In this document: piece by piece, positions 1-60,730 of the stretch
Numbering within the stretch: position 1 is the stretch's first letter
Layout of the letters: each line of letters opens with the position of its first letter
Assembly (NCBI GenBank): GCA_944389655.1
Contig: CALXND010000001.1
Location: 954 to 64,953, forward strand
Reading direction: 5' to 3'
DNA: 64,000 nucleotides
Source: an uncultured Clostridia bacterium
GTDB lineage: Bacteria > Bacillota > Clostridia > TANB77 > CAG-508
Position numbers and translations under genes: made by a program
The notes under the pieces: model-generated
The model's input: only the letters and a program-made list of their open reading frames with translations
The model's database searches: none
What the model was told of the DNA's origin: nothing

Positions 1-96
1 TGCATTTTTCGTCATATTGCCTTCTCCTCTCTTAATATAAGAATATTATAATGTTATGTTAATTATAGCATTTGATGTGACAAAAAGTCAAATTAA

Positions 97-2052
97 TTAT
101 AAGTTCCCCTCAAGTTCTTTTATTTTATCTCTTAATTCTGCTGCCTTTTCAAATTCCATATTTGCTGCATATTTAAGCATTTCATCAGTTAATTTGTTTA
201 TTACATCTTCAATAGTTTCATCTTTACCAATATTGTATTTAGTTTCCGCTTCTTCTATAATACTTGCCTTAATAGAATCTCTAACAGATTTCTGAATAGT
301 TTTTGGTGTAATTCCATGTGCTTCATTATATTCCTGCTGAATTCGTCTTCTTCTATTCGTCTCAGAAATTGCTTTTTCCATAGATTCTGTCAGTTCATCT
401 GCATACATTATAACTTTTCCATCAGTATTTCTTGCTGCACGTCCAATTGTTTGTATTAATGAACGTTCTGAACGAAGAAATCCTTCCTTATCAGCATCCA
501 AAATTGCAACCAAAGAAACTTCTGGAATATCCAGACCTTCTCTTAAAAGATTAATTCCAACCAGCACGTCAAATTCTCCTAGCCTTAAAGAACGAATTAT
601 TTCCATTCTTTCCAAAGCTTTAATATCTGAATGCATATATCTTACCTTTATATCAATTCCAGCTAAGTAGGCAGTTAAATCTTCTGCCATTTTTTTAGTT
701 AGAGTAGTAACTAAAACTCTTTCGTTCTTTTCTACTCTTTGTCTTATTTGTTCTATTAAATCATCTATTTGATTTTCAACAGGTTTAACATCTATTTTAG
801 GATCTAGTAATCCTGTAGGTCTTATAATTTGTTCTACAACATTTTCTTTTGAGTGTTCCTTCTCATAATCTGCTGGTGTTGCACTTACAAAAATAACTTG
901 ATTAATTCTTTCCTCAAACTCATTAAATTTTAGCGGTCTATTATCAAAAGCAGACGGCAACCTAAATCCATATTTTACCAAAGATTCTTTTCTTGCTCTA
1001 TCTCCATTATACATTGCTCTTACCTGTGGAATAGTAGCATGTGATTCATCTATTAATAGTAGAAAGTCTTTTGGGAAATAATCAAAAAGAGTAAATGGCG
1101 CACTTCCTGGCTCTCTACCACTAATATGTCTAGAATAGTTTTCTATTCCTTGGCAAAAACCTGTTTCCTTCATCATTTCTATATCAAAGTTTGTCCTCTC
1201 CTCTATTCTTTGTGCTTCAATTAATTTTCCGTTATCTTTAAAATATTTTATTCGTTCTTGCAACTCTTCTTCTATAGTGTGTATTGCTCTTTCCATTTTA
1301 TCTTGAGTTGTAACATAATGAGAATTTGGGAATATCATAACATGATTTCTTGTAGCAATTACTTTGCCTGTCAATGGATTTATTTCAGAAATTTTTTCTA
1401 TCTCATCTCCCCAGAATTCTACTCTTATTGCACTTTCACTCTCATCAGATGGATATATTTCCAAAATATCTCCCTTTGCTCTAAAAGTACCTCTTTTGAA
1501 GTCTAGCTCATTTCTGCTATACTGCATTGTAACTAGCTTTTTCATTATTTCGTTTCTTTCTTTTTGCATACCAGGTCTTAATGAAACAATCATGTGTTCG
1601 TAATCAATTGGATCACCTAGTCCATATATGCATGACACAGATGCAACAATTATTACATCTTTTGTCTCAAACAAAGCAGCTGTAGCAGAGTGACGTAATT
1701 TATCTATTTCGTCATTAATAGAAGCATCTTTTTCTATGTATGTGTCCGATGATGCTATATATGCTTCTGGCTGATAATAATCGTAGTATGACACAAAATA
1801 CTCAACATTGTTTTCTGGGAAAAACTCTTTGAATTCACTATATAATTGCCCTGCTAATGTCTTATTATGGGCTAAAACAAGTGTTGGTTTTTGTACTTTT
1901 TGTATTATATTTGCCATCGTAAATGTTTTTCCAGAACCTGTAACACCAAGTAATGTCTGATATTTCTTACCTTCCATAACTCCTTTTGATAAATATTCAA
2001 TTGCCTGTGGCTGGTCGCCTGTTGGTTTATATTCTGAATGTAATTTAAACAT
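97..2052 (-). CDS. uvrB: Excinuclease ABC subunit B (UvrB), full length, 651 aa
   Basis: Translation begins [21 protein letters not shown], has the P-loop GVTGSGKT and helicase-like motifs, and is of UvrB length. Stop codon is TAA. Confidence 0.95.
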
Positions 2053-2410
2053 TTCTACCTATACTCCTTAAATTATAATCTCTATTAACCTAAAATTAGT
2101 GTAATTGCTTTAAAAACTTATCATTTTTTCGTGTAATTTATATGCAAAACCTCCGATTTTTTCATGATTTTTAGTAGCTTTTAGTAACATAATATACCTT
2201 TACGCGAATTGGGTCACAAACTTTATTTTTTTAAACTATTTAACACTAAATAAAATTATTTAATATTAAATAATTTAAACATATTATTTATATCATATTT
2301 TGGGTAAAAATACAATAAATTCCACATCTTATTACCATAAGATATATTAAATTTTTTCTAAAGCAAAAAAGAATGATAATCAATATTATATCATTCTTCT
2401 TGTATTTTCT

Positions 2411-2446
2411 GTAATTTCTTGGTCGTTTTTTCGACCAAGAAATTAC
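2411..2446. terminator. Perfect 15-bp stem hairpin (gtaatttcttggtcg / loop tttttt / cgaccaagaaattac) downstream of the minus-strand HAD-fusion gene pair
   Basis: Perfect palindrome read from the sequence. Its position fits a bidirectional terminator after the minus-strand operon ending near 2700. Confidence 0.6.
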
Positions 2447-2699
2447 TTTAATATTTTCCAATTTCCCTTTTTAGTAGATCCCTCTCTTGTTATTATATTA
2501 TTTTCTTTCAAAACCGCTATATGATATTTTACTTTTTCATTTATTACTTGGCTATTATTAATATCTAATTTTGTGCTGTCTAAAATAAAATCTACTTTAT
2601 GCTTTTCTAATATATTTAATAAATTTTCTCCAGTTTCTAAATTGTCTCTTTGTAATAAAGTTTTCTACCATTTTTCAATTAATTCCGTGCTCTTTTCTA

Positions 2700-3335
2700 A
2701 ATAAAATTATTAATAATATTTAATAGCTCATCAAAATTCTTGCACGATTTACAATTTTTAAAACTATTATGCATGCTAATAAATTCAAAATTACAATTTT
2801 TAGCAAATTCATAATCAGTATATGAATCTCCAATAACAATTGAATCATTTGATATTTCATCATTTATATCTTTTTCTATTATATCAACAACTTTAGAATT
2901 GGGTTTCTTTATATCATTTAGTGAATAATCCCTATAAAATATATATTCAAACTTTTCTGTTAGGTTATATTCTTTTAATATAAACTCTATCTACTTAGGA
3001 CTTGAATTAGAAATCATAATTAAAGGTATCTTACAATTTTCAATAAAAGAAATGGCATCATCTTCTATTACAATTTGTTTATTTTTATATTTTTTGTAAT
3101 ATTCTATAAATTCTACTTCACTAAAATTCTCGTACCATTTCTCATACTCTTTTTCATTAATTCCTAAAAGTTTTAATCTTGTATTTCTACTTTTAAAATC
3201 ATTATTATTATAAATTTCATCTGGATTAGCTACATTATTATACTCTAGCCATTTTAACATAACAGATTTTAATCTATTATCATACTTGTGAATAGTGATG
3301 GTATCTTCTAAATCTATTAAAATATACTTACTCAA
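2700..3335 (-). pseudogene. HAD-superfamily hydrolase (phosphatase-like) interrupted by an in-frame TAG at 2991-2993
   Basis: The 2991..3335 ORF (MSKYILIDLEDTI, HAD motif I D-x-D-x-T, then ISNSS) continues in the same frame after the amber codon as IEFILKEYNLTEKFEYIF...SIVIGDSYTD (HAD motif IV) ending DELLNIINNFI*, by manual translation. There is no Met near the downstream part, so it is not a separate gene. Confidence 0.55.
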
Positions 3336-5532
3336 AATATCCCTCTTGAAGCTTTCTACCTATAGTACATCCCACATTATGTTTTTTTAATTTTTCCATT
3401 TCTTCTTTTGTACTAATACCACCAACACAATTAAATATTTTCTTAGTTAATTTTGAGTATTTTATAGCATTATCCAGATCTCCACCTGAAGCCTTACCAT
3501 CATGTTCTACTGAAACATAGTTAAATTCAGAACAATAGGGTTCAAATAGTTTTATTTTCTCTGGAATATTAACAACAGTATTTGTTCTTCTATCAATACT
3601 ATCTAATCCTACAATGATTTTTTCAGGTTCAAAATCTTTAAGCAACTCTGGAGTTGCATGAGTACCTATAATTACTTTTTCAGCCCCCATATCTAATAGC
3701 TTTTGTATTTCTTCTTTTTTTCTAATACCTCCACCAACACGAACCTTTTTTATTTTCATAATCTCTCTAATAATTTCTAAACTTTGACTCTCTCCATAAA
3801 ATCTATCTAAATCAATTATATTTACTTTTGGATAATCTCTAATAATACTTATCGCCTTTTGTATTGGATATTTTTCTAAATATCTAATTTTTTTATTCAT
3901 TATATCCATGCTTAAAACAAAATTAGAATCATACTTTACTAATGAATCAAATGAAATATTATTCATTTCACAAATACTTTTTCCTCTATTATAAAGTAAT
4001 TCTATATCATCTAAAAATTGATTTTGAAATCCATAACTTCTGAGTTTTTTAATATAATCTTTATGATTATTACAAAGTGTACATACTAAATCATCAGTTG
4101 TAGTATGATGGCGAGTAGATACATAAGTTTTATAATCTATATTCTCTAAAATCGAAAAATCTTTATTTTTATCCATATATTCATAGCTGATTTCTAGTGT
4201 TCCTGTTTTAACGTTTATATTTTTTTTAGTAAATATTTCTTTTAATATAATTAACGTTTGACCTGTACCTATATTACCGTCAAATATTTCAATATTGCTT
4301 GGAAAGCTATTATTTATGCTAATATTATTAAGAGTTATTTTTCCTTCATCATATAATTGTTTCATATTTTGATCATGTACACCAAATTTTACATATGAAT
4401 AATCTGTACCATGCAAAATTTTAAAAAATGGGCCAATTAAAATCGCAGAATATAAAGGACAAACAATATGATTAGCATCATGAATATTAGATATTGTCTT
4501 ATAAAGTAACATTTTATGGTCACCCTCAATTAATCTATTCTCAACATAAACATCATTATCAGTTTTTTGTAATGAAAAACGTGGAGTATCAATTACTTTA
4601 TTTCTTAAACACTCTATGATATTTTTAACATCTTCTTCCATACATTTTTGAGAAACATCAATATTATTAATTTCTCTATTTAATGCTCTTTTATAATCTT
4701 CATAAAAAATTCGGTAACTAGCATTTAACATATATTCACAAACGATAAATGCCTTTTTAATTTCTAATGGAAATAATTTTTTCAAATTTTCTCTAAAATC
4801 AACTAATTCATTATAAGTTTTTTTTGCATAATATTCATTTGATCTACTTACAAATAAACCATCATTAATTTTACTAACTAAATTTTCTATATTTTCTGAA
4901 TTATTTAATTTAATTAATCCTAGATAATCAAAATCATTTTCTTTTAATAAATCATCATTTTCTTCAATAATTTTCTTAGATTTCGTATTAATACTCTTAA
5001 ACTTATCAGTAGTAGCCCATGCTAGATGACTTAAACAATGCTTAACTTTTTCTTTTCTTAACAACTCCTTGTCTGGATTAACTCCTAATATGTTATAAAA
5101 TAATTCTATTTTTTCTTTTGTATCTAACACATGAATTTCCAAAGCACTATAATCAACTTCTGGAATATCATATCTTGAACAACAAAAGTCTATAAAATAA
5201 ATTTCATCATTATAATATAAAATATTTTCTTTATGAAGATCTCCATGTACGAATACTTTCCCATCTCTAATATGACTATGAATTTTTTTTATGGCATTGG
5301 CTAATTTTTCAACAATTTCATCAGTAATCTCTATTTCATTTAAAGTTTTCCCCTTGATTTTTTCTATTATAATTGTGTTTGTATTATCATCACACTCAAT
5401 AAATTTGGGAATATTTTCTTTTAAAAGGCTATATGCATATTTTTCATTTTCATACATACCGTTGCTTTCTTTAACAATTTTAATTATATTATTATTATCT
5501 TCATCAATGTAATTAATTCTTCTTATCCCCAT
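3328..5532 (-). CDS. Multidomain protein: N-terminal small kinase-like domain (HGDLHKENIL...YFIDF), central PRTase-like domain (IEIFDGNIGTGQTLIIL), C-terminal HisA/HisF-like (beta-alpha)8 barrel (VRVGGGIRKKEEIQKLLDMGAEKVIIGT and CVGGISTKEEMEKLKKHNVGCTIG)
   Basis: Motifs read directly from the translation. The start is placed at MGIRRINY because GGAGGT lies 5 nt upstream; the longer track ORF starts at MALCAKRSDGMEV. Overlaps the HAD gene by 8 nt, so they are probably co-transcribed. Confidence 0.65.
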   Translation of the reverse strand: MGIRRINYIDEDNNNIIKIVKESNGMYENEKYAYSLLKENIPKFIECDDNTNTIIIEKIKGKTLNEIEITDEIVEKLANAIKKIHSHIRDGKVFVHGDLHKENILYYNDEIYFIDFCCSRYDIPEVDYSALEIHVLDTKEKIELFYNILGVNPDKELLRKEKVKHCLSHLAWATTDKFKSINTKSKKIIEENDDLLKENDFDYLGLIKLNNSENIENLVSKINDGLFVSRSNEYYAKKTYNELVDFRENLKKLFPLEIKKAFIVCEYMLNASYRIFYEDYKRALNREINNIDVSQKCMEEDVKNIIECLRNKVIDTPRFSLQKTDNDVYVENRLIEGDHKMLLYKTISNIHDANHIVCPLYSAILIGPFFKILHGTDYSYVKFGVHDQNMKQLYDEGKITLNNISINNSFPSNIEIFDGNIGTGQTLIILKEIFTKKNINVKTGTLEISYEYMDKNKDFSILENIDYKTYVSTRHHTTTDDLVCTLCNNHKDYIKKLRSYGFQNQFLDDIELLYNRGKSICEMNNISFDSLVKYDSNFVLSMDIMNKKIRYLEKYPIQKAISIIRDYPKVNIIDLDRFYGESQSLEIIREIMKIKKVRVGGGIRKKEEIQKLLDMGAEKVIIGTHATPELLKDFEPEKIIVGLDSIDRRTNTVVNIPEKIKLFEPYCSEFNYVSVEHDGKASGGDLDNAIKYSKLTKKIFNCVGGISTKEEMEKLKKHNVGCTIGRKLQEGYFE

Positions 5533-5649
5533 AATAACCTCCATTCCGTCGCTACGCTTGGCACAAAGTGCCATGAAAAATCTTTATTTTCTGGGTTAAC
5601 GACTATTTTTATTTATTAAGTTTCCATAACATGATATAATATCTCCCAG

Positions 5650-7190
5650 AATATATAAATTAACTACAGAGCACGGGGAGGTGAGTAGAATATTATCTCA
5701 ACCTCATTTGGGTAAAAATCCGCATAATAACAGGTGTCGAATATCTTTTCAAGTACAAATAAGTGGCGCTTCTAAGCCTGCACACTAATCATTGTTAAAC
5801 AAATTCTCTGTTTAGTGCTAGATATTCAGTCAATGTTTATATATTCTAAAATTCATTTTTAGGAAGTATATACCAATGTTAAAAATTGTATATCCTATTT
5901 GTTGTGGCGTCGATGTCCACAAGAGGTTTATTGTTGCAACCATTGCATTTACCAATGATAAAAATATCACTTCTTATATTACAAAAAGATTTGATACTTA
6001 CAACGAAGACCTTGAAATATTTAAAGATTGGCTTCTTGAACACAACTGTAAAGATGTTTGCATGGAATCTACCGGCAAGTACTATATTCCTATTTACAAC
6101 GTTTTAGAAGATTATGTTCATGTTATCGTAGCTAATCCTAAATATGTCAAGGCCATTCGTGGTAAAAAAACTGATAAGAAAGACTCTGTTTGGATTGCTG
6201 ACTTATTCAAGCATGACTTAGTTCCTGGAAGTTATATTCCACCTAAGCCTATCAGAAAATTACGTGAATTGTTTCGTTATCGTTTTAAATTAGTGAACAA
6301 CCGTACTTCTGAAAGAAACCGTTTACAAAATTGTTTAACTGTTTCAAATATCCAATTAGCTTCTGTTCTTACCGACATGGCAGGTAAATCTGCTCAAGCT
6401 ATTATTAATTATATCACAACTTGTGACACTTTTGATATAGATTATTGCAAATCTTTATTAAAAGGTTCTGCTAAATCAAAAGCTGATGATGTAATAAAAG
6501 CCATTGTTGGATATTCTATTAGTGATGAACAATCTACTAAAATTGATGTATGCACAAAACATCAGAAGAATTTGGATGAACATATTCAAGATGTTCAAGA
6601 TAAAATTTATGAGTTAGCAAAACCTTATCAAAAACAAATTGATCACATTTGTACTTGCCCTGGTTTCAGTAAAGACTCAGCTATTTATACTATAGATGAA
6701 ATTGGTGTTTATATGACAGCTTTTAAATCAGCTAAACATCTTTGCTCTTGGGCTGGTCTTACACCTCAAAATAATGAAAGTGCTGGTAAGAAAAAGTCTG
6801 TACATATCAGTAGAGCAGGTGTTTATCTTAAACCACTTCTCATAGAATGTGTAAACAATGCCATTAAGAAAAAGGATAATCCATATTTTAAAAATAAATA
6901 TGATAGAATTAAAAAACATCGAGGTCACAAAAGAGCTATTGTTGCTATATCAAGAATGATGCTTACTTGTGTCTATCACATGCTTTTAAAAGATGAAGAT
7001 TTCAATCCTTGTGATTTAGATTACACCGAAATACCAGAAGAAGTTTTTGAAAATCGCAAACAAAAATACATCGACAGTGCAATTTTCTTACTTCAAAAAC
7101 AAGGCTTTACAATTACCAAAGATGATGTTATTTATGCAACTAAATAAACCTATTTATTAAATTAATTTAATATTTTTTTACACAGTAGTA
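5650..7190 (+). mobile_element. IS110-family insertion sequence (boundaries approximate)
   Basis: Carries an IS110-type transposase gene preceded by ~250 bp of leader with GC-rich structured segments typical of this family. IS110 elements lack clear terminal inverted repeats, so the ends cannot be fixed by eye. Confidence 0.5.
5876..7147 (+). CDS. IS110-family transposase (DEDD-type), 423 aa
   Basis: N-terminus MLKIVYPICCGVDVHKRFIVATI and the C-terminal region with AGLTPQNNESAGKKKS...HRGHKRAIVAISRMML are characteristic of IS110/IS1111-family transposases. Confidence 0.9.
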   Translation: MLKIVYPICCGVDVHKRFIVATIAFTNDKNITSYITKRFDTYNEDLEIFKDWLLEHNCKDVCMESTGKYYIPIYNVLEDYVHVIVANPKYVKAIRGKKTDKKDSVWIADLFKHDLVPGSYIPPKPIRKLRELFRYRFKLVNNRTSERNRLQNCLTVSNIQLASVLTDMAGKSAQAIINYITTCDTFDIDYCKSLLKGSAKSKADDVIKAIVGYSISDEQSTKIDVCTKHQKNLDEHIQDVQDKIYELAKPYQKQIDHICTCPGFSKDSAIYTIDEIGVYMTAFKSAKHLCSWAGLTPQNNESAGKKKSVHISRAGVYLKPLLIECVNNAIKKKDNPYFKNKYDRIKKHRGHKRAIVAISRMMLTCVYHMLLKDEDFNPCDLDYTEIPEEVFENRKQKYIDSAIFLLQKQGFTITKDDVIYATK

Positions 7191-7717
7191 AATTTTTAAA
7201 ATTTTAACCGCTACTGTTATTAATCATGCTCTTTTTTAATTTTTCTTTTTTCACACTAACCTCCTCTTTTTTAAAATTAATCATAATATTCACTTGTTTC
7301 ATTTGTAAAATCATTTACTACAAATAATACTAGATTGATTTTTTGTATTACGTTTCATCTGTTAGTGTTAATAATAATTTTAGAAAAACAATTGCTAGTT
7401 TTTTTAGAACCATATATTACAACGAATTTTTGCTCAGATGGAGAAGCAGCAATATTAATGGAAAACTTAGTGCTGTGCGTTTCTTGATTGTTTATTATTT
7501 CAGTATTTCTTTTTCAGTAAGCAATCTAGGTGATTTTATAATTTTGTATTCCGCTTTATTATCCTCAAGTGGATTTACACAAATTTGGTCACAAACTTTT
7601 TTGTTCATTTAGGTTTATTTAGTTTTTTTAGGGTTATTTCGTCATTTTTTCTCAAACTAATTAAAACTAAAAGAGTCTAAAAGTGCCTATTTAAAGCCAT
7701 TCTTGAGAGTGGTCATA

Positions 7718-7984
7718 CTAACTAACAAAATACTCCACGTTGTTCTCTGGGAAGAATTCTTTGAACTCTGAATAGAGTTGTCCAGCTAGTGTTTTATTGT
7801 GTGCAAGCACCAATGTTGGCTTCTGTACTTGCTGTATTATGTTAGCCATTGTAAAGGTCTTTCCAGAGCCTGTAACACCTAGAAGTGTCTGGTACTTCTT
7901 TCCTTCTTTTATTCCATTTGATAAATATTCTATCGCTTTAGGTTGGTCTCCTGTTGGCTTATAATCTGAATGTAATTTAAACAT
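7718..7984 (-). pseudogene. uvrB: Truncated 5' fragment (88 codons) of a second, diverged uvrB copy
   Basis: [88 protein letters not shown] is colinear with UvrB residues 1-88 of the 97..2052 gene. DNA identity is about 80%, with a 19-bp identical block across the start codon. The sequence beyond 7718 is unrelated to uvrB. Confidence 0.85.
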
Positions 7985-8030
7985 ATCAACTATCCTTTCA
8001 TAAAACTAAATCTTATTTTATCACTTTTAT

Positions 8031-8065
8031 ATAAAAAGTACAAGGCTAATTTAAAACCTTGTACT
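8031..8065 (-). terminator. Rho-independent terminator of the SASP gene (stem agtacaagg/ccttgtact followed by a T-run on the minus strand)
   Basis: A 9-bp stem with an 11-nt loop sits immediately downstream of the SASP stop, followed by TTTTTAT on the minus strand. Confidence 0.6.
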
Positions 8066-8072
8066 TGCATTA

Positions 8073-8249
8073 CTAGCTATTTTCGGTGCTTCTATTTGCT
8101 ATTTCTATAGCTTTTGTAACTATATTACCACATGTTTTTGATGGTACATTTCCCCATCCTCCGTCTTGTTTTACTTGATCAAAAACACCTAGTTCCTTAG
8201 CAATTTCCTCTCTCAATTTATCAGAAATAATAGTTTTATGATTAGACAT
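8073..8249 (-). CDS. Alpha/beta-type small acid-soluble spore protein (SASP), 58 aa
   Basis: MSNHKTIISDKLREEIAKELGVFDQVKQDGGWGNVPSKTCGNIVTKAIEIA matches the two conserved SASP blocks (EIA.ElGV... and G.vGGeiTKrlv-like). Start is set at MSN with AGGGAGGT 6 nt upstream; the track ORF is longer. Confidence 0.85.
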   Translation of the reverse strand: MSNHKTIISDKLREEIAKELGVFDQVKQDGGWGNVPSKTCGNIVTKAIEIANRSTENS

Positions 8250-8562
8250 AACTGTTACCTCCCTAAAATCAATCTTTAAGATTATACAATTTTTCAATTC
8301 TTATTTATGAGTAATAATTTTAAATAAAGTTAATTATTCTTAAATTTACAAATTAAAACTTCTATTTTTTTGATTTATCCACACATAAATTCTATAAAAA
8401 TGAAAAATCGCTTTTAATCGGATATTCTAATTAAAATTATTTTGTGTACAATAATTTATAATATTTATTATAATATCCGTCATTATTATTTTAACCTTTT
8501 ATAGAAAAAATATTTTTTTATTTTATAGAAAATTTAACAATTTTTTCCACGCAAAAATTTTA

Positions 8563-8583
8563 GACGCCTCTAGGTGAGGCTTC
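8563..8583 (-). terminator. Putative terminator hairpin (gacgcctc-taggt-gaggcttc) after the 8637..9002 gene
   Basis: An imperfect GC hairpin followed by a T-rich tract on the minus strand. Confidence 0.4.
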
Positions 8584-8636
8584 TATTTTTCTTGCAAGAT
8601 ACTTCTTGCAGTTTACTTATTTTCTGATGTCACTCC

Positions 8637-9002
8637 TCATTCTTCTCCTTTTGTTAATAATTCATGTTTTGGTACATAAATAATTGCAATTAGTGTATTG
8701 CTATTATGCTTAACGGTTTGGATGTATTTTTCCTTTGCATGCATTATTGAGATTTTAACACAGTTGCAATCTCTTGATTTAGATTCGTCAGCTATTACTT
8801 CAAGATACTCTATTTCTTGATTTTCTAATAACGTTTTAACATCCTGCTTTGAAGGTAAATATACTTGAAAAGCTTCCCAATCAATATCTTCGCAGCATAT
8901 TGATTTCATGCACTCATCGATTAATATCTCCAAATTATTCCGTTCTTCTTTTTCCAGCTCCTCTAAGATTTCTTCAATCCTAATAGTCTTGCTTTCCTTC
9001 AT
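8637..9002 (-). CDS. Hypothetical Cys-containing protein, 121 aa
   Basis: Uninterrupted ORF in the dominant orientation. No motif recognised. Confidence 0.45.
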   Translation of the reverse strand: MKESKTIRIEEILEELEKEERNNLEILIDECMKSICCEDIDWEAFQVYLPSKQDVKTLLENQEIEYLEVIADESKSRDCNCVKISIMHAKEKYIQTVKHNSNTLIAIIYVPKHELLTKGEE

Positions 9003-9122
9003 AGTGTTTTCCTCCTTAGAAAATAAGTTTTATAAAATATACAACTTAGTATATAATTAATTTTATCATTTTAAATGAGTTATGTCAATCTTGTGCAACT
9101 TTCTATTTATTCATTATATAAT

Positions 9123-9680
9123 TTACCCTATCTTTTCAATATCAATCCTTGCATTTTCATATTCTACATCTTCAAGAGATAAACCTCCAAGTTGTAATAC
9201 ATCGCCTGCATTTAGTCTTAATATAACAGTAGCAGTTAAAGTATATCTATTATTTACTATTTCCTCCGAAAGAACTGCTCCTTCATTTAAAGTATCTGTT
9301 TGAGGAACATTATTAACCAATAATATTGCATTAAAATTAAATCTTCCATCCACTGCTTGGTCTACCCCTGTAAGACTATAAGAAATTTGATAAATTCCAT
9401 CTTCATTTATATTAATTTGACTTGTTCCAGGAGTATGAGTTAGTGCTGTTCCTTCTTCTATTTGATTTTCACTAAAATTTATAATAACATTGCCTTCTGA
9501 TGTATTGTCACCAGGCCTTGCAACTGCCACTAAAATATCTTTTTGCACATTTGGATTATTCATACTAATAAATATTATAATCGCAATTACCAAAAATATA
9601 AGAGTAAAAATTGAAATAACCTTTACCATATTACAAATATTGCACTTATTGTACTTATCACACTTCATATCACACTTCAT
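9123..9680 (-). CDS. Membrane-anchored protein with Cys-rich N-terminus (MKCDMKCDKYNKCNICN), one TM helix and a C1q/TNF-like, BclA C-terminal-domain-like, beta-sandwich domain
   Basis: The C-terminal segment (IYQISYSLTG...FNFNAILLVNNVPQ...TLTATVILRLNAGDVLQL) resembles the globular C-terminal domain of exosporium BclA-type proteins, but there are no collagen-like GXX repeats. The hydrophobic stretch VISIFTLIFLVIAIIIFI is the anchor. Confidence 0.5.
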   Translation of the reverse strand: MKCDMKCDKYNKCNICNMVKVISIFTLIFLVIAIIIFISMNNPNVQKDILVAVARPGDNTSEGNVIINFSENQIEEGTALTHTPGTSQININEDGIYQISYSLTGVDQAVDGRFNFNAILLVNNVPQTDTLNEGAVLSEEIVNNRYTLTATVILRLNAGDVLQLGGLSLEDVEYENARIDIEKIG

Positions 9681-9725
9681 AAAAAACCTCCTCTTTACAT
9701 ATTTTATGAGGTTTTTAAATAAAAA

Positions 9726-9829
9726 GTGAGCAAAAGGGGTCAGACCCTAATTGCGCAAAAAAGCTTGTATCTCTTGCTATTACTGTATTATAGCATTTGC
9801 GCAATTAGGGTCTGACCCCTTTTGCTCAC
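9726..9829. repeat. Extended copy of the GC-rich palindrome family: two 34-bp perfect inverted arms (gtgagcaaaaggggtcagaccctaattgcgcaaa / tttgcgcaattagggtctgaccccttttgctcac) flanking a 36-bp spacer
   Basis: Read directly from the sequence. Each arm is itself related to the TTGCGCAAATGGGGTCAGACCCCATTTGCGCAA unit found elsewhere in the window. Confidence 0.85.
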
Positions 9830-9830
9830 T

Positions 9831-10493
9831 TTAAAAGATTATTCCACTTCCATAATCGTGAATTTCTAACCCTTTAAAGTCTATTAAATTCAAATTGTAT
9901 TTTTTTAAGTGCTCACAAATTTTTTCTCTATTGTTTAATTTTGAACCATCTCCAAATAATACAAAGTTATTGTCAAATACTAATGTTGCGCCACCTATAA
10001 AGCCATGCATTTTTGATTCTTCTCCACTTTTTTGAAGCAATTTTATATTGTTCTCTTCTACATATAAAGCATCAATGCCATTGGCTCTTAATACTTTTTC
10101 TATTCCCTTATCTGATGTTATACATGAGTTACTACTTGTTATTGCTATTGAACATTTTACATAGCCTTGTTTTACTAAAATATTAGGTTTTATGCTTTTA
10201 TCTGTATAATCGCTTCCTATTATATTATTTCCTATTTGGCAACAATTATATTTAACATCTTTTGGATATTCTTTTCCTACATTTTCTTGCCCCATTTTAA
10301 AAGAACTATTTTTATATGGAGCATTTGGTGCTGATATAATTTTATTATTTATTTTGCAATAAAATATATCACTATGGCCAGATATTTCTTCGTACACATC
10401 ATCTGATAATGGTAATTTTACTATATTAAAGTGTTTACTTAAATAATTATATTCTTTTTCTCTTATTCGTGTGTCTATTATTAAATTATTCAC
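9831..10493 (-). CDS. Hypothetical protein, 220 aa
   Basis: Uninterrupted ORF ending 2 bp from the palindromic element. No confident family assignment. Confidence 0.5.
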   Translation of the reverse strand: MNNLIIDTRIREKEYNYLSKHFNIVKLPLSDDVYEEISGHSDIFYCKINNKIISAPNAPYKNSSFKMGQENVGKEYPKDVKYNCCQIGNNIIGSDYTDKSIKPNILVKQGYVKCSIAITSSNSCITSDKGIEKVLRANGIDALYVEENNIKLLQKSGEESKMHGFIGGATLVFDNNFVLFGDGSKLNNREKICEHLKKYNLNLIDFKGLEIHDYGSGIIF

Positions 10494-10565
10494 TTTTATC
10501 GTTCCTTTTCAAAGTATTAAATTCTTTTATCTTAAAAAATCCAGATACAAGTAAATTAAACAACA

Positions 10566-11240
10566 TTAAACTCCTGCATTTCCACTTAGCATAAGTCCAG
10601 CATACGCTGTTGAATATTCTGCTGTTATTTCTTTTACAATTTGTTTTTCTTCTTCCATTAAGTTTCGACCTAGATGAGACATTCTCTTATCTAATTTATG
10701 TGTCATTTTAGCACATTCTTTAAGTTCTTTTTTTACACCTTTTGGAATTTGTTTATTATATTTATAATTAATTTTGTGTTCTAAGCTTGCCCAAAAATCC
10801 ATCGCCATTGTTCTTATTTGAATTTCTACCTTTACCTCAATTGTTCCTACTGATAAACTTACAGGAACAGATAATATTAAGTGGTAACTAGAGTATCCAC
10901 TTTCCTTTGGTGTTGTAACATAATCTTTCTTTTTTAGTATGGTAAGATCTGGCATGTTTTCTAGCATTTCTACTATTTTAAATATATCTGGTATAAATGA
11001 GCATATTATCCTTATACCTGCAACATCATTAATAGTTTTTACTAAGTTTTCGTATGTTGGGTCTAAACCTTTCTTTTTTAGCTTTTTGTTAATACTTTCT
11101 TTGCTCTTAATTCTACTACTTACATGTTCTATTGGATTGTATTTATGTAGTGTTTTAAATTCGTTATTTATAATATCTATTTTTGTTTCCATTTGTTTTA
11201 ACGCAGCTGTATACATAAGTGTAAGTCTCTTATATTCCAT
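10566..11240 (-). CDS. relQ: Small alarmone synthetase (RelA/SpoT-domain GTP pyrophosphokinase, RelQ/YjbM-like), 224 aa
   Basis: Synthetase-domain motifs GIRIICSF, EIQIRTMAMDFWASLEHKINYKY and a C-terminal helix, at the size of single-domain SAS proteins. Confidence 0.8.
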   Translation of the reverse strand: MEYKRLTLMYTAALKQMETKIDIINNEFKTLHKYNPIEHVSSRIKSKESINKKLKKKGLDPTYENLVKTINDVAGIRIICSFIPDIFKIVEMLENMPDLTILKKKDYVTTPKESGYSSYHLILSVPVSLSVGTIEVKVEIQIRTMAMDFWASLEHKINYKYNKQIPKGVKKELKECAKMTHKLDKRMSHLGRNLMEEEKQIVKEITAEYSTAYAGLMLSGNAGV

Positions 11241-11403
11241 ATCTTCTTGCAGTTTATCTTCCTTTTTAACTACTATATCTTCTATGGCTAATCAACTCCC
11301 TTCGTATATATTTATACACCACTTTTATGTCCATTATGTGTAAATTTGCTGTTTATTTAAAGTTTTTATATTTTTTAATTCATGACTTATAAAGTTTTAT
11401 ACT

Positions 11404-11594
11404 AGTCATAGTTAATATATTTAAAATTTGTTTCAAATATGTCGGTCAAGATGATTTTCAAACTAATTCTAAAGAAATTTTTGCAGCGCCCTCAACAAAC
11501 TTGAGATTCCCTACAAAAATTTCTCAAGAATTAGTATTTTCAAATCACATTCCATTCCATATTCTCACAAATTTTAAATATATTAACTATGACT
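11404..11594. mobile_element. MITE-like element, copy 1 (191 bp, 27-bp perfect TIRs agtcatagttaatatatttaaaatttg / caaattttaaatatattaactatgact)
   Basis: Same element found at 28274..28469 (inverted orientation) and 60433..60622. It has a conserved GC-rich core, ttgcagcgccctca...gattccctacaaaaatttctcaagaattagta. Confidence 0.75.
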
Positions 11595-11631
11595 TTAGCT
11601 AAAGGAACTTTGTAAGTCGTGGATTTTAGTA

Positions 11632-12816
11632 TTAAAACGTATCTTCTAAATTTTTCTCTTTTAATTTATTGTTTGTGTTTTCTTCAATTATCGCATACAA
11701 AATTGAAACTACTGGAAGTCCTACAATCATACCCATTATGCCAAATAAGCTTCCTCCAATTGTAATTGCAACCAGCACCCAAATGCTTGGAAGACCAATA
11801 TTTTTTCCTACAACATGTGGATAAATTAGGTTTCCTTCTACTTGTTGAAGTACTATTATAAATAAAATAAATATTAATGCTTTAATTGGGTCGATTGCTA
11901 CTATTAGTACTGCACCAATAAATCCAGATATAAATGCTCCAACTATTGGAATAAATGCTGTTATTGCAGTAAGTGCTCCTATTGGCCCTGCATATGGAAT
12001 TCCTAAAATAAACATACCTATAGCACATAGTGAGCCTAGTATTACTGCTTCTTTTGCTTGCCCTGTTAAAAAGCTTCTAAATGAATCTCTAGCAAGTCTG
12101 CTAACTTTTATAATATAGTCTGCTTTTTCTTTTGTGCAACGCGCATATATAAATTTCTTTGCTTGCAATTTTAGATTTTCCTTATTTGCTAAAATATATA
12201 CTGCAAATATTATTGATATAAAGAAGTTTACAATATTTGATAATAGGCTAGATACTTGGTTTATTGTGATATTTAATACATCTTTAGATAAATTCATTAT
12301 TCCATTTTTTAATGCTTCTGTATCTATATGTATATTTTGTATAAAATTATTTATATCTGGAAATCTTTGCGTAATATCAATTGCAAAATTTTTGGCATCT
12401 TCTAAAAAATTTGGTATATTGCTTATTAAGTTTTTTATAACCTCTACAAATTGTGGAATTATTAATACTAAAATTATAGTTATTACAGCTATTATTGTAA
12501 TTATTGAAAGTGCTATAGAAAATGGTCTTTTTATTTTGTTTGTTCTTGTTACATTACTTTTTCCATCTGGTTTTACAGTTTTAGAGCTTTTATCGGCGTT
12601 TTTCTTTCTTGACTTGAATATTTTGTTTTCATATATGCTCATAAATATATTTAAAATAAATGCTATTGCTAATCCCCATATAAACGGAGAAATAATGTTT
12701 AGGAACTCTTTTACGCCTCCCCATACTGGACCAATGTTTAAAAGTGCTACTAATAAAACTATAGCTATTACAACAATTTTTATAATTTGCTTTGTATTTT
12801 CTTTATCTAGCTTCAT
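11632..12816 (-). CDS. AI-2E family transporter (PerM/UPF0118-type permease), 394 aa
   Basis: Polytopic membrane protein with the family's large cytoplasmic loop (KENLKLQAKKFIYARCTKEKADYIIKVSRLARDSFRSFLTGQAKEAVILG). Confidence 0.8.
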   Translation of the reverse strand: MKLDKENTKQIIKIVVIAIVLLVALLNIGPVWGGVKEFLNIISPFIWGLAIAFILNIFMSIYENKIFKSRKKNADKSSKTVKPDGKSNVTRTNKIKRPFSIALSIITIIAVITIILVLIIPQFVEVIKNLISNIPNFLEDAKNFAIDITQRFPDINNFIQNIHIDTEALKNGIMNLSKDVLNITINQVSSLLSNIVNFFISIIFAVYILANKENLKLQAKKFIYARCTKEKADYIIKVSRLARDSFRSFLTGQAKEAVILGSLCAIGMFILGIPYAGPIGALTAITAFIPIVGAFISGFIGAVLIVAIDPIKALIFILFIIVLQQVEGNLIYPHVVGKNIGLPSIWVLVAITIGGSLFGIMGMIVGLPVVSILYAIIEENTNNKLKEKNLEDTF

Positions 12817-12833
12817 AATCTACATACTCCTTT

Positions 12834-14276
12834 TTAATATATTCCTATTTTTTTCATATAATTAATATATGCATTATCTATATTTTTCCATGTTTCTATC
12901 TCATTTTCCAAGGCTTCTATGTTAAGATGTTGACCACTAACATCTTCGTAGTAATTAATAATACTTTTCTTAAATTCTATTGGGGTTCTACCAATAATTC
13001 TTGCAATATCATCATATTTATTACCAACGCCACCAAAACCAAAGTCTATAAACGCTGTTACTTTATTATTATCATCAATTAATATGTTACTGGAATTCAA
13101 GTCTCCGTGAACTAAACAAGTAGAATTCTCATTTTTTACATTATTTTTAAATTTCCAAAATTTCATATCTTCTTCACTAACATGACGTTTTAATAATTCA
13201 TCTAAGAAGTTTTTTAATTCTAAGTTCATATCATTTAGTGATATTTCATTTTTGGATATAATATTTTCGTATGCTGTTTTTAAATCTTTTTCACTAAAGT
13301 CTAATTTATGTAATTGATACATGAATTTAGCTACATCTTCTGATACATTATTAATTTCATTTTCAGTCAATTCATTCATTTTTTCAGCAAGTGTAACTCC
13401 TTCTATTTTCTTATGCATACTAAAAGGTCTGCCTTGCTTATCAAATTTAAGTTCTAGTTTTACCGTATTGTAATTTGTCTTTTCATAAATGTAATTTGAA
13501 AATATGTAATCTTTTATTATTGTTTTTGACCAAAATTCATCACGTGGAAATCTAAAAAAATATTCTCCATCAGGCGTTTTAGCATTATATACTATATTTG
13601 TCCAACCAGTAGATATTTTAGTAAGTCTATTAATTGTTTTTCTCACTAATACTTCTTTTATTATTTTTTCAAAATCGTCATTTTCTTCAAAATATATTTT
13701 TTTATCTATAGGAAACACGCTCCTTCTTTTTTCTTCTATCAGGATTTTTTTAACTAAATCTAAAATTTTATCTTCTGAATTCTTATCATAATTGTTGTAT
13801 ATTATATAGTCAAATTTATTTTTAAGTTTTTCGTTGCTTATTACATTGTTGTAATGTTCTTCCATTTCTAATAATCGTTCTTTTTCTTTTGACTTTTCCA
13901 AATTTCTTTCAGTAATTTTGGATTTTGCAATATCTATATCTTGTGGAAAAATATATATTGTCTTAATATCTGGTCGTACTTTTTTCCAATCATCTATTGT
14001 AGTATAGTGCATTTCAAAAACCATATTTTCTTTTGAATATATATCTTCACTAAGATATGCATATGTACCCCCAAAAACATCAAAAGAATATGCAATTTTA
14101 TTTTCGGCTTTTAATTTTTCTATTTCTTCTTTTGTCATAAATAAACCGTTTTTTTCTCCTGGTCTCTTTTTCCTGGTTCGTATTGTTCTTACTTTTTTAA
14201 ATCCTAATTTTTCTGATATTTTTTCTACATAGTATGATTTACCTACACATGTAATTCCAACTAGAGCAAGTAACAT
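12834..14276 (-). CDS. Fusion protein: N-terminal guanylate-kinase-like P-loop domain (GITCVGKS...RTIRTRKKRPGEKNG) plus C-terminal aminoglycoside/choline-kinase-type phosphotransferase domain (VHGDLNSSNILIDDNNKVTAFIDFGFGG)
   Basis: Motifs seen in the translation. Start is placed at MLLALVG with AAAGGAGG 5 nt upstream and a ggtataat -10 element; the track ORF starts 18 codons earlier. Confidence 0.65.
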   Translation of the reverse strand: MLLALVGITCVGKSYYVEKISEKLGFKKVRTIRTRKKRPGEKNGLFMTKEEIEKLKAENKIAYSFDVFGGTYAYLSEDIYSKENMVFEMHYTTIDDWKKVRPDIKTIYIFPQDIDIAKSKITERNLEKSKEKERLLEMEEHYNNVISNEKLKNKFDYIIYNNYDKNSEDKILDLVKKILIEEKRRSVFPIDKKIYFEENDDFEKIIKEVLVRKTINRLTKISTGWTNIVYNAKTPDGEYFFRFPRDEFWSKTIIKDYIFSNYIYEKTNYNTVKLELKFDKQGRPFSMHKKIEGVTLAEKMNELTENEINNVSEDVAKFMYQLHKLDFSEKDLKTAYENIISKNEISLNDMNLELKNFLDELLKRHVSEEDMKFWKFKNNVKNENSTCLVHGDLNSSNILIDDNNKVTAFIDFGFGGVGNKYDDIARIIGRTPIEFKKSIINYYEDVSGQHLNIEALENEIETWKNIDNAYINYMKKIGIY

Positions 14277-14394
14277 ATTTGCCTCCTTTGCTATATTTGC
14301 GATTATACCATATTGTATGTTAAATGGCAAATGTGTTCAAAATGCAATAAAAATCGCCAAAATTAGCTAATAAATAGTTTTATATTCTTCTGTA

Positions 14395-14631
14395 GACCAA
14401 AGCTGTATGGTTTTTATAAAATGTAGTAATTTTCATTTAAGCCAAATATTATATGATTTTTATTTTTGATTGGAGTGCTTAAGGTGGGGACCGACAAGTT
14501 TACAAACTGTTATACGAGGATATTTCCGAGTATTTACAGTTTGTACGCAGTTGGGGGCCGGAAATCAAAAATCAAAATTATATAATATTTGGCTTAATAA
14601 ACATATTTAATAGAACCATACAGCTTTGGTC
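14395..14631. repeat. Large nested palindromic element: 18-bp perfect outer IRs (gaccaaagctgtatggtt / aaccatacagctttggtc), ~70-bp near-perfect inner arms, ~90-bp GC-rich core (ggagtgcttaaggtggggacc...cagtttgtacgcagttgggggcc)
   Basis: Read from the sequence. The core is about 85% identical to the reverse complement of 30480..30575, and a partial arm copy occurs at 18499..18560. Confidence 0.8.
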
Positions 14632-28134: not shown

Positions 28135-28273
28135 ATGTTATCACCTCAATTTCTGCGAATTGTACTCTTTATTTAATAATACTACTATTTCTTGCTTTTT
28201 TCCATCATTTATTCTAAATTAAATCTTACATTTTGGTAAGATGTTACAATTCACGGTCATTTCTATTTAGCAT

Positions 28274-28469
28274 AGTCAGAATTAATTTATTCAAAATTTG
28301 TGAAAATATGGAATAGAATATGATTTGAGAATACTAATTCTTTAAAAATTCTTGTAGGGAATCTCGTGCTTTGCCGTGAGGGGCGCCACAAAAATTTCTT
28401 TAGAATTAGTACGAAAATCAGCTTGACCGACATATTTGAAACAATATTTTTAATATATTAATTCTGACT
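28274..28469. mobile_element. MITE-like element, copy 2 (inverted orientation relative to copy 1)
   Basis: TIRs agtcagaattaatttattcaaaatttg ... tatttttaatatattaattctgact. The core is the reverse complement of the 11404..11594 core. Confidence 0.7.
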
Positions 28470-28516
28470 TTATACCAAAACTTTATTGGGCGGTAAATTG
28501 TAACAGTAAGACTTTT

Positions 28517-30393: not shown

Positions 30394-30646
30394 TTGCGCT
30401 GGTTGGGGGACTTAGCTTATTTTGCGCAATCTTCATCATATTTTAAATGTTAATTTATATATTTTTTCTTTTTAGTCTTCGGCCCCCAGCATCGTACAAA
30501 CTGTAAAATTCCACTAACGTGTATTTAACAGTTTGTAAACTTGCTGGTCCCCACCTTAAGCACTCCGACTAAAAATAAAAAATATATAAATTAACTAAAA
30601 ATTCAAATAATATTTGCGCAAAATAAGCCCGTCGCCAACCAGCGCA
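30394..30646. repeat. Composite palindromic element inside the ABC/TCS operon: outer IRs ttgcgctggttggggg.../...ccaaccagcgca enclosing a copy of the GC-rich core shared with 14395..14631
   Basis: Left arm ttgcgctggttgggggacttagcttattttgcgcaa, right arm ttgcgcaaaataagcccgtcgccaaccagcgca. The internal segment cttcggcccccagcatcgtacaaactgtaaaa...cttgctggtccccaccttaagcactcc is the reverse complement of the 14470..14560 core. Confidence 0.8.
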
Positions 30647-33284: not shown

Positions 33285-33397
33285 CTGCGCAATTGGGGAC
33301 GGGCTTGTTTTGCGCAAGTTTAGTTATGTTTATAATTATAAATTTACTATAAAATAATAATATTTGCGCAAAACAAGCCCGTCCCCAATTGCGCAAA
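33285..33397. repeat. Palindrome-family variant pair (ctgcgcaattggggacgggcttgttttgcgcaa ... ttgcgcaaaacaagcccgtccccaattgcgcaaa) flanking a 46-bp AT-rich spacer
   Basis: Perfect 33-bp inverted arms read from the sequence. Confidence 0.85.
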
Positions 33398-34170: not shown

Positions 34171-34474
34171 CTTATTTTTCTTAATTATACAATTTCTAAA
34201 GTGACAGGTAAGTGACAAAGAAAAAATTATAAGAATTTTTTATTGTATAGAAACAATTGTCTCTTCAATTGATATTTTAGTGCTTTTAATGATTTTTTTC
34301 CTATATAACAAAATTAGGTTTCCTTGGGCTGTGCATATTTGCGAAGCAAAATGCACATGTATGCGTCGAAAGCTCTGCTTTCGCTAACGCACACCTTTCT
34401 TATAAATAAAAAGAACAGTACGTATGAAATTTAATTAATACTTACTGTTCTTTTTATTTTAAGCAAATTCTTGC

Positions 34475-60380: not shown

Positions 60381-60432
60381 ACACACGTCCTTTTATGTTA
60401 CTTATCACAGTATAATAACGTTTTTGCCTGAT

Positions 60433-60622
60433 GTCAGAGTTAATATATTAAAAATATGCAAACGAATATGTCGGTCAAGCTGATTTTCGAACTAATTCTA
60501 AAGAAATTTTTGCAGCGCCCTCAGCCAGCAGAGATTCCCTACAAAAATTTCTCAAGAATTAGTAACTTCAAATCACATTCCATTCCATATTCTCACATAT
60601 TTTGAATATATTAACTCTGACT
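60433..60622. mobile_element. MITE-like element, copy 3, between cdsA and rseP
   Basis: TIRs gtcagagttaatatattaaaaatatg ... catattttgaatatattaactctgac. About 90% identical to copy 1 over the core. Confidence 0.7.
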
Positions 60623-60730
60623 ATAGTAAAAGGGGTTATACTGTGATAAGTACCATCTTTATTATTGACTTTCAATCGTATATAAACTTAATTGTAGTCA
60701 TTTATTAATTTAAGAAATCCATTTAATAAA

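Follow-up and report, generated by a model that had tools for sequence, protein, structure and literature searches.

A probable integrative island at codon 88/89 of uvrB, with a replacement 5' end for its target gene, in an uncultured Clostridia bacterium

A 64,000-nt stretch of contig CALXND010000001.1 (assembly GCA_944389655.1, positions 954 to 64,953; hereafter the window) from an uncultured Clostridia bacterium carries an intact uvrB gene and, 5.9 kb upstream of it on the same strand, a diverged copy of its first 88 codons. How did the beginning of this gene come to stand twice at one locus, with other genes in between? The most probable answer, to which a probability of about 0.85 can be assigned, is that the stretch contains an integrated mobile island, belonging to a family of elements that insert at codon 88/89 of uvrB by means of a tyrosine integrase, within the sequence GARTAYTTYGTN-NNN-TA.

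The intact uvrB (97..2052, minus strand) encodes a protein of 651 aa with the Pfam domains ResIII/DEAD, UvrB_inter, Helicase_C, UvrB and UVR. The displaced 5' fragment (7718..7984, minus strand) is an 88-codon open reading frame (ORF) matching uvrB codons 1-88. The initial annotation of this locus, made from the sequence alone, had described the two copies as colinear at about 80% DNA identity, and this holds: 82 of 88 residues are shared with the N terminus of the intact protein, and self-BLAST gives 79.7% identity across 266 nt (1793-2058 against 7725-7990). Homology runs from the ATG on, and the sequences upstream of the two copies are unrelated to each other. The sequence beyond the fragment, previously described as unrelated to uvrB, is nearly so, except that weak homology continues for about 15 nt past the fragment stop (codon 89 being TAG in place of TAC), and a 12-mer beyond the fragment, AATGACGAAATA, is collinear with uvrB at nt ~335. 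The arrangement is not an assembly artefact, because the same layout of fragment, island and uvrB recurs at 98-100% identity in contigs of several other metagenome samples; scaffold_383 of ERZ28614938 is identical to the window.

For comparison, 80 species-level uvrB relatives were used, all from uncultured gut Clostridia, and the first 260 nt of the gene were compared apart from the rest. Within nt 1-260 the window uvrB is 95.4% identical to locus L036 and 90-92% identical to L035, L037, L039, L051 and L027, with an identity of 78% in the remainder of the gene. Beyond nt 260 its nearest relative is L001 (86.5%), followed by L062 and L063; identity to L001 is even along the whole gene, at about 85%. 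In successive 60-nt bins the identity to L036 is 100, 97, 90 and 93%, then 85, 83, 78 and 72%. The near-identity to L036 starts at window 2320, some 270 nt upstream of the ATG, and stops at the sequence GAGTATTTTGT (1803-1793), after which the alignment follows the L001/L062/L063 type. Since the identity pattern switches at GAGTATTTTGT, the 5' end of uvrB (1793..2052, minus strand, about the first 260 nt) and the region upstream of it are considered to have been imported, as an element-borne replacement. The import boundary within the intact gene coincides with the position at which the displaced fragment ends. The intact gene thus consists of an element-borne part, about codons 1-87/88, and a host-type remainder; its ORF is unbroken and has all UvrB domains. 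Judging by its sequence, the gene looks functional, the element-borne part apparently keeping the target whole.

These affinities bear on a simpler history, in which a second uvrB or a tandem duplication was cut by a rearrangement and the intervening genes were inserted later. The two copies do lie on one strand as direct repeats, the ORF of the fragment is unbroken, and weak collinear similarity extends up to nt ~350 of uvrB. However, the copies are 80% identical to each other, whereas the intact 5' end is 95% identical to L036 and nt 91-240 of the fragment are 93-100% identical to L018/L010. Neither copy is therefore a diverged form of the other, and the unrelated upstream regions do not fit a duplication either. 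Moreover, the same truncation point is found in dozens of unrelated contexts beside mobile-element genes, and no locus examined had a second full-length uvrB. A truncated second gene, which the initial annotation had kept as its alternative, is accordingly very improbable; its statement that the copies are not a recent tandem duplication agrees with their not being each other's closest relatives.

The site of the exchange can be located from the two ends of the island. The core region at the left end (attL; 7719..7735, minus strand), GAGTATTTTGTTAGTTA, in which codon 89 is TAG, was delimited by comparison of junctions, and that at the right end (attR; 1787..1803, minus strand), GAGTATTTTGTGTCATA, which ends at the TA of codon 89, by setting attL against attR in the window and in L063, L093 and L106. 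The two share the core GAGTATTTTGT (7725-7735 and 1793-1803). The window attL reads GTTAGT, TA, GTATGACC, and the window attR reads GTGTCA, TA, CTACGAT, so that the TA of codon 89, or a position just before it, would be the place of the exchange. All left junctions compared read ...GARTAYTTYGTN-(TCA/AGT)-TAG-TAYG..., and the codon 88/89 position was seen in L063, L091, L093-L097, L099 and L106. The initial annotation had instead considered as a possible crossover core the 19-nt block shared by both copies at the start codon, CTGAATGTAATTTAAACAT. This block occurs exactly twice in the 64-kb window (0.01 expected), yet it encodes MFKLHS and is present at the uvrB start in 32 of the 80 species-level loci. 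It is conserved coding sequence, and the crossover lies at codon 88/89, the far end of the fragment.

The same junction recurs in many hosts. In a search of public metagenome proteins with the 88-aa ORF, the 120 best matches, to which the following figures apply, were all short proteins; 31 clusters are exactly 88 aa long, and about 70, from a reading of the listed tails, leave the UvrB sequence within residues 89-93. In some truncated UvrB ORFs, 105 aa long, the reading frame continues into downstream sequence that the window shares (tail ...QKWLYLATFSPF), indicating that the TAG at codon 89 is frequent, not universal. In L095, L097-L099 and L101-L105 the fragment is followed by a conjugative element of more than 10 kb, with genes for an HTH_36 protein, a type IV secretion system (T4SS) pilin, PrgI, a VirB4-like ATPase, TrbL, an M23 peptidase, a sortase and adhesins; a further element of more than 10 kb follows it in L110-L113. 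Smaller islands between the fragment and an intact uvrB were also found. The 4.4-kb island of L093 ends in a C-terminal Phage_integrase ORF without the N-terminal arm-binding part, followed by intact uvrB and uvrA; L106/L108 have a 5.1-kb integrase-less island; and L063 carries genes for RhuM and a histidine phosphatase. Immediately upstream of uvrB in L004 and L018 is a gene for a 440-aa integrase with Arm-DNA-bind_4, SAM-like and catalytic domains.

Both one host type with different elements and one element in different hosts were met. L095 and L096 agree in host flank and fragment but have different elements after ...TTCGTTTCATAG. L091 has the upstream flank of the window and its first 90 nt, but a conjugative element in place of the window's island. 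The host fragments of L091 and L101 are 78-89% identical, and the two loci are 100% identical from nt 262 onward, hence the same conjugative element resides in different hosts. Such a junction pattern is of the kind that a dedicated integrase yields, and not of the kind left by general recombination or a one-off rearrangement. With the same junction in many hosts, integrases nearby and breakpoints at the same codon, the earlier proposal, in which an integrative element with a replacement 5' end is directed at the 5' part of uvrB, is borne out in its core.

Two of these loci have additional features. L093 contains two integrase relics: a frameshifted integrase upstream of the 'displaced' fragment and a 281-aa C-terminal integrase ORF overlapping an HTH_38 ORF (8498-9682, 13359-14388). 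The 281-aa ORF is located upstream of the intact uvrB, and the fragment is preceded by the integrase pseudogene and an element-type upstream region. As far as the sequence goes, the two relics are evidence of tandem accretion and decay at the uvrB site. The L106 (10907-15073) and L108 (3189-7355) islands code for a radical-SAM/adenosine-deaminase fusion and a NUDIX protein; this cargo may be defence-related, since both proteins have weak PADLOC matches (CARF_ADA, PDC-S07).

The displaced fragment of the window is itself chimeric. Its nt 1-90 (7895-7984) are species-native, with 96-100% identity to L091, a locus that shares the species flank. Its nt 91-260 (7725-7894) are of the L018/L004/L010 type: nt 91-240 show 93-100% identity to the uvrB 5' ends of these loci, two of which adjoin integrases, and 73-80% to L091. 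The fragment of L091 is uniformly about 86% identical to L001, as in the rest of the gene, and therefore looks native. The region upstream of the window fragment (7985..8072, minus strand), which includes the terminator of a small acid-soluble spore protein (SASP) gene (8036-8066), is likewise native; it is identical in L091, which has a different element after the fragment. The earlier suggestion that the displaced fragment is the native 5' end thus applies to nt 1-90, which match the species' own sequence, but not to nt 91-260, which match element-borne copies elsewhere. Because the fragment is chimeric, an earlier round of integration is proposed. An L018-type element would have integrated first and then been lost via homologous recombination between the 260-bp repeats, with a crossover near nt 90, before the present element integrated.

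Homologous exchange inside the 260-bp repeat therefore does occur, as the switch at nt ~90 of the fragment attests, and it might be asked whether it also accounts for the insertion. In a Campbell-type event, a circular DNA with a uvrB 5' segment would recombine homologously with the chromosomal gene, without a dedicated integrase or core; the window is without an integrase, and many loci have uvrB 5' ends whose affinities are unlike those of the rest of the gene. Such an event explains the internal chimeras but not the fixed end at codon 88/89, where the displaced copy stops in all contexts examined, which include many hosts and four or more unrelated types of element. The partners, at 80-90% identity, would be poor RecA substrates, integrases with arm-binding domains adjoin the site, and the arm repeats co-vary between both ends. 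Insertion by homologous recombination is therefore regarded as quite unlikely.

The arm repeats are situated in two regions flanking the cargo. The element-borne region upstream of uvrB, designated the P arm (2053..2330, minus strand), is homologous to the sequence upstream of uvrB in L035-L037, L062, L063 and others and has a sharp left boundary. It contains a conserved promoter-like module (2256-2320, minus strand), which is common to many loci and in L093 is found just downstream of the integrase pseudogene. The left-end arm, or P' arm (7555..7717, minus strand), is 85% identical to the sequence after the uvrB fragment in L063 and 78% in L096. A 24-nt repeat, D2 (AAGTTTGTGACCCAATTCGTGTAA), occurs in the same orientation about 170 nt upstream of the intact uvrB (D2a, AAGTTTGTGACCCAATTCGCGTAA, 2200-2223, in the P arm) and about 120 nt after the fragment (D2b, AAGTTTGTGACCAAATTTGTGTAA, 7575-7598, in the P' arm). 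The 3' half of D2, ATTCGTGTAA, has two further inverted copies (TTACACGAA) upstream of uvrB, the TTACAC(G/T)AA copies in the P arm at 2095-2104 and 2127-2136. Four of the six one-mismatch matches to the D2 half in the 64-kb window are located in the two arms.

The ATTCGTGTAA/TTACACGAA type of motif is present at both ends in the window, L063 and L096, and beside the integrase in L004/L018; L093 and L106 have the ATTCGTCC/GGACGA type at both ends instead. The short arm repeats are probably arm-type integrase-binding sites, a reading that fits because the repeat type co-varies between the ends and the integrase has an arm-binding domain. Interpretation of D2 as a simple promoter was rejected, as D2b and other copies do not fit the promoter match. 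Genes of the RhuM family (PF13310) recur directly after D2 or directly upstream of uvrB (L059 520-1542 and 2237-3192; L062 8843-9847; L063 8250-9254; L019, L043 and L066; L047/L048 8963-9991). In L047/L048 the first 44 nt of uvrB, about 15 codons, form the start of the RhuM ORF, and in L059 three copies of D2 mark off successive cassettes.

As delimited by junction comparison, the window island as a whole extends from about 7720 to about 1790 (5.9 kb), that is, between the fragment end and uvrB nt ~260. The presence of genes for a HAD-family protein, a fusion protein and an IS110 transposase in this interval, reported in the initial annotation, was confirmed by Pfam and NCBIfam. The cargo operon is closed by a terminator-like hairpin found by sequence scan (2411..2446, no strand assigned). 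The HAD-family hydrolase gene (2697..3335, minus strand) is a pseudogene with an in-frame TAG at 2988-2990. It matches PF00702 (37.7 bits) solely when read through this codon, and in the 212-aa read-through product the domain spans the two halves and takes in the motifs DxDxT and GDSYTD. The other same-species contigs have an identical 114-aa call, so that the nonsense codon appears fixed. The cargo fusion gene (3328..5574, minus strand) encodes a 748-aa protein with a Bud32/RIO-like kinase domain (residues ~40-150) and a HisA/HisF-like TIM barrel (~570-746), separated by about 400 residues without a domain match. A PADLOC scan of the window cargo gave no convincing defence-system match, and RhuM and the other cargo of the L063 island have no counterpart in the window. 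The GC content of the cargo, 22-24%, is slightly below that of the flanks and not diagnostic. The island is present in every longer same-species contig.

The IS110-family DEDD transposase (5876..7147, plus strand; 423 aa) was assigned by PF01548 (DEDD_Tnp_IS110), PF02371 (Transposase_20) and NF033542 (226.8 bits against a cut-off of 140). The insertion covers roughly 5600-7200, there being no further copies to define its ends. The stretch upstream of the ORF (5640-5875) folds no better than shuffled sequences (z = -1.5) and has no Rfam match. Four contigs from other samples (L086, L087, L089 and L090) break at window 7098-7120, inside the IS110 3' end, which suggests repeat copies or strain heterogeneity there.

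As the sole recombinase gene in the interval, and a member of a family of site-specific, RNA-guided enzymes (NCBIfam names it so), this transposase could be thought to have made the arrangement itself, by RNA-guided composite insertion or by a rearrangement mediated by the insertion sequence. Its position speaks against this: it is internal, the left junction being about 450 nt away and the right junction about 3.8 kb away. Moreover, the window has a single copy of it, its exact protein was found at this site only, and it does not occur in the homologous junctions of L063, L096, L093, L106 and the conjugative elements. An origin of the duplication through IS110 is thus extremely improbable. 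The element is a secondary insertion, a passenger inside the island and not the island's integrase.

With an integrase-mediated origin preferred, the locus may be explained as follows. Beside its attachment site, a circular element would bring along a promoter of its own together with a copy of uvrB codons 1-88. Insertion would join this copy in frame to host codons 89-651 (attR), so that uvrB would stay functional, and would leave codons 1-88 of the host, with their earlier promoter, stranded at the opposite end (attL), often running into a TAG supplied by the element. The window copy would later have lost its integrase, gained IS110 and the HAD nonsense mutation, and become fixed in the species across several samples. 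Remnants of an integrase were not detected in 2330-2990 and 7148-7717 by tblastn, tblastx or profile hidden Markov model (HMM), and an integrase gene probably once stood in the window at what is now the end of the cargo. The island is best described as a decayed or non-autonomous integrase-less remnant, like those of L063 and L106, because it holds IS110 and the HAD pseudogene and is devoid of the integrase present in relatives. It is most likely immobile today; at best, a related element could mobilise it in trans or in cis.

Several observations weigh against an integrase-mediated insertion. No tyrosine recombinase was detected in the whole 64-kb window by tblastn or with an HMM built from five integrases, and the window island (2053..7717) contains no integrase, excisionase or conjugation gene and no T4SS module. 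Among the relatives, no single locus was recovered with attL, a complete integrase and attR of one element. The comparison with related genomes envisaged in the initial annotation yielded same-site junctions in many hosts but no same-species empty site among the contigs from the SASP, UvrB or fragment look-ups. Within the presumed overlap attL and attR are mismatched (GTTAGT against GTGTCA), which would require a heterology-tolerant integrase or a later change. The distance of about 430 nt between D2a and the core is large for an arm site, and D2a overlaps a promoter-like hexamer pair (9/12 match), so that it could be regulatory. Finally, a 1.6-kb contig found via the SASP protein look-up, L081, is 99.8% identical to window 8892..8005, and its positions 889-1617, starting from window 8005, 20 nt upstream of the fragment ATG, match neither the window nor the fetched loci. 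Perhaps L081 represents a variant strain that carries a different insertion, or a rearrangement, beside the SASP gene.

The native neighbours of the displaced fragment are the alpha/beta-type SASP gene (8073-8297) and a gene for a protein with a BclA C-terminal domain (9123-9680). Their presence indicates that the host is probably a spore-former, despite its small-genome uncultured relatives. Imperfect palindromic repeats of 70-270 nt are located in the intergenic regions of the window (9723-9832, 11377-11625, 14395-14631, 28266-28487, 30395-30646, 33286-33395, 34396-34466 and 60395-60656). They form at least two families (11377/28266/60395 and 14395/30395/18509) and may be MITE-like or REP-like elements. 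The Rfam scan of positions 1-12000 returned only spurious matches to miRNA families (MIR405, MIR6288), which are explained by these palindromic repeats. Among the uvrB relatives, many loci (L059-L063, L066, L067, L072, L073, L075, L076, L078 and L079) show a one-base uvrB frameshift near Walker A (codons ~40-44), and some of these genes have a second frameshift at about codon 80, in many cases together with a CTCGG-like insertion, e.g., GGCTCTCGGGAAAAC. These recurrent frameshifts in species-representative metagenome-assembled genomes look like a systematic assembly or polishing error.

The mechanism deduced for the uvrB family from its sequences would match that of SXT/R391 elements, which target the 5' end of prfC, and of dusA-specific elements. 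It differs from SXT/R391 in its target gene and in its hosts, which are uncultured low-GC gut Clostridia rather than Gammaproteobacteria. The swapped uvrB segment is also long, at 88 codons with the Walker A motif among them, and its protein sequence is highly conserved; the window copy has neither integrase nor transfer genes. Phage 21 and e14 at icd, as well as elements in tRNA genes, carry a duplicate of the displaced part of their target and replace 3' ends. At icd, as at uvrB, a diverged partial copy stands at one junction and the functional gene is a mosaic, whereas the uvrB family replaces the 5' end together with the promoter.

Integrase-less islands with attL/attR-like ends at the sites of integrative and conjugative elements (ICEs) have been termed cis-mobilisable elements (CIMEs), for example at the fda site of ICESt1/ICESt3 in Streptococcus thermophilus. 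CIME/ICE accretion likewise involves att-flanked islands without an integrase and tandem arrays formed by repeated integration (cf. L093), but the uvrB family enters the 5' rather than the 3' end of its target. Elements specific for dusA (e.g., IMEVchUSA3; the family of Farrugia et al.) include prophages, mobilisable islands and conjugative elements at one site (PMC8409611). They replace about 35 codons, compared to 88 in the uvrB family, reside in another target gene and phylum, and have been proven experimentally, whereas the uvrB family is deduced here from sequence. The IS110 family is represented in the window by an ORF with its DEDD_Tnp_IS110 and Transposase_20 domains, but as a passenger and not as the cause of the uvrB duplication. 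A literature search for uvrB as an integration site found no report. Since the mechanism matches that of the SXT and dusA elements, the uvrB family adds a new target gene and a new group of hosts to an already known kind of element, and the window's own copy is an ordinary decayed island.

The displaced ORF keeps its native promoter region and ribosome-binding site and holds the Walker A motif; it stays intact in dozens of lineages, often closed by the TAG supplied by the element. A speculative and quite unlikely extension is that this ORF is expressed as a UvrB N-terminal peptide modulating nucleotide excision repair or the DNA-damage response, and that the integrase-less two-arm islands constitute a mobilisable cargo pool. 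Such a pool, comprising the window, L063 and L106 islands and partly defence-like, could be mobilised from the uvrB site by related conjugative elements. If the extension is true, the peptide would tie the behaviour of the element to DNA damage in the host.

Overall, codon 88/89 of uvrB appears to serve diverse conjugative elements, and small islands too, as an integration site in gut Clostridia that are uncultured and have small genomes. Because the first 88 codons and the promoter have been repeatedly swapped, the history of the uvrB 5' end differs from that of the rest of the gene in many species, and uvrB is unsafe as an uncritical phylogenetic marker in this clade. Short ORFs annotated as 'UvrB' are att-site scars and not paralogues, and the uvrB site is a useful place to seek cargo and defence genes.

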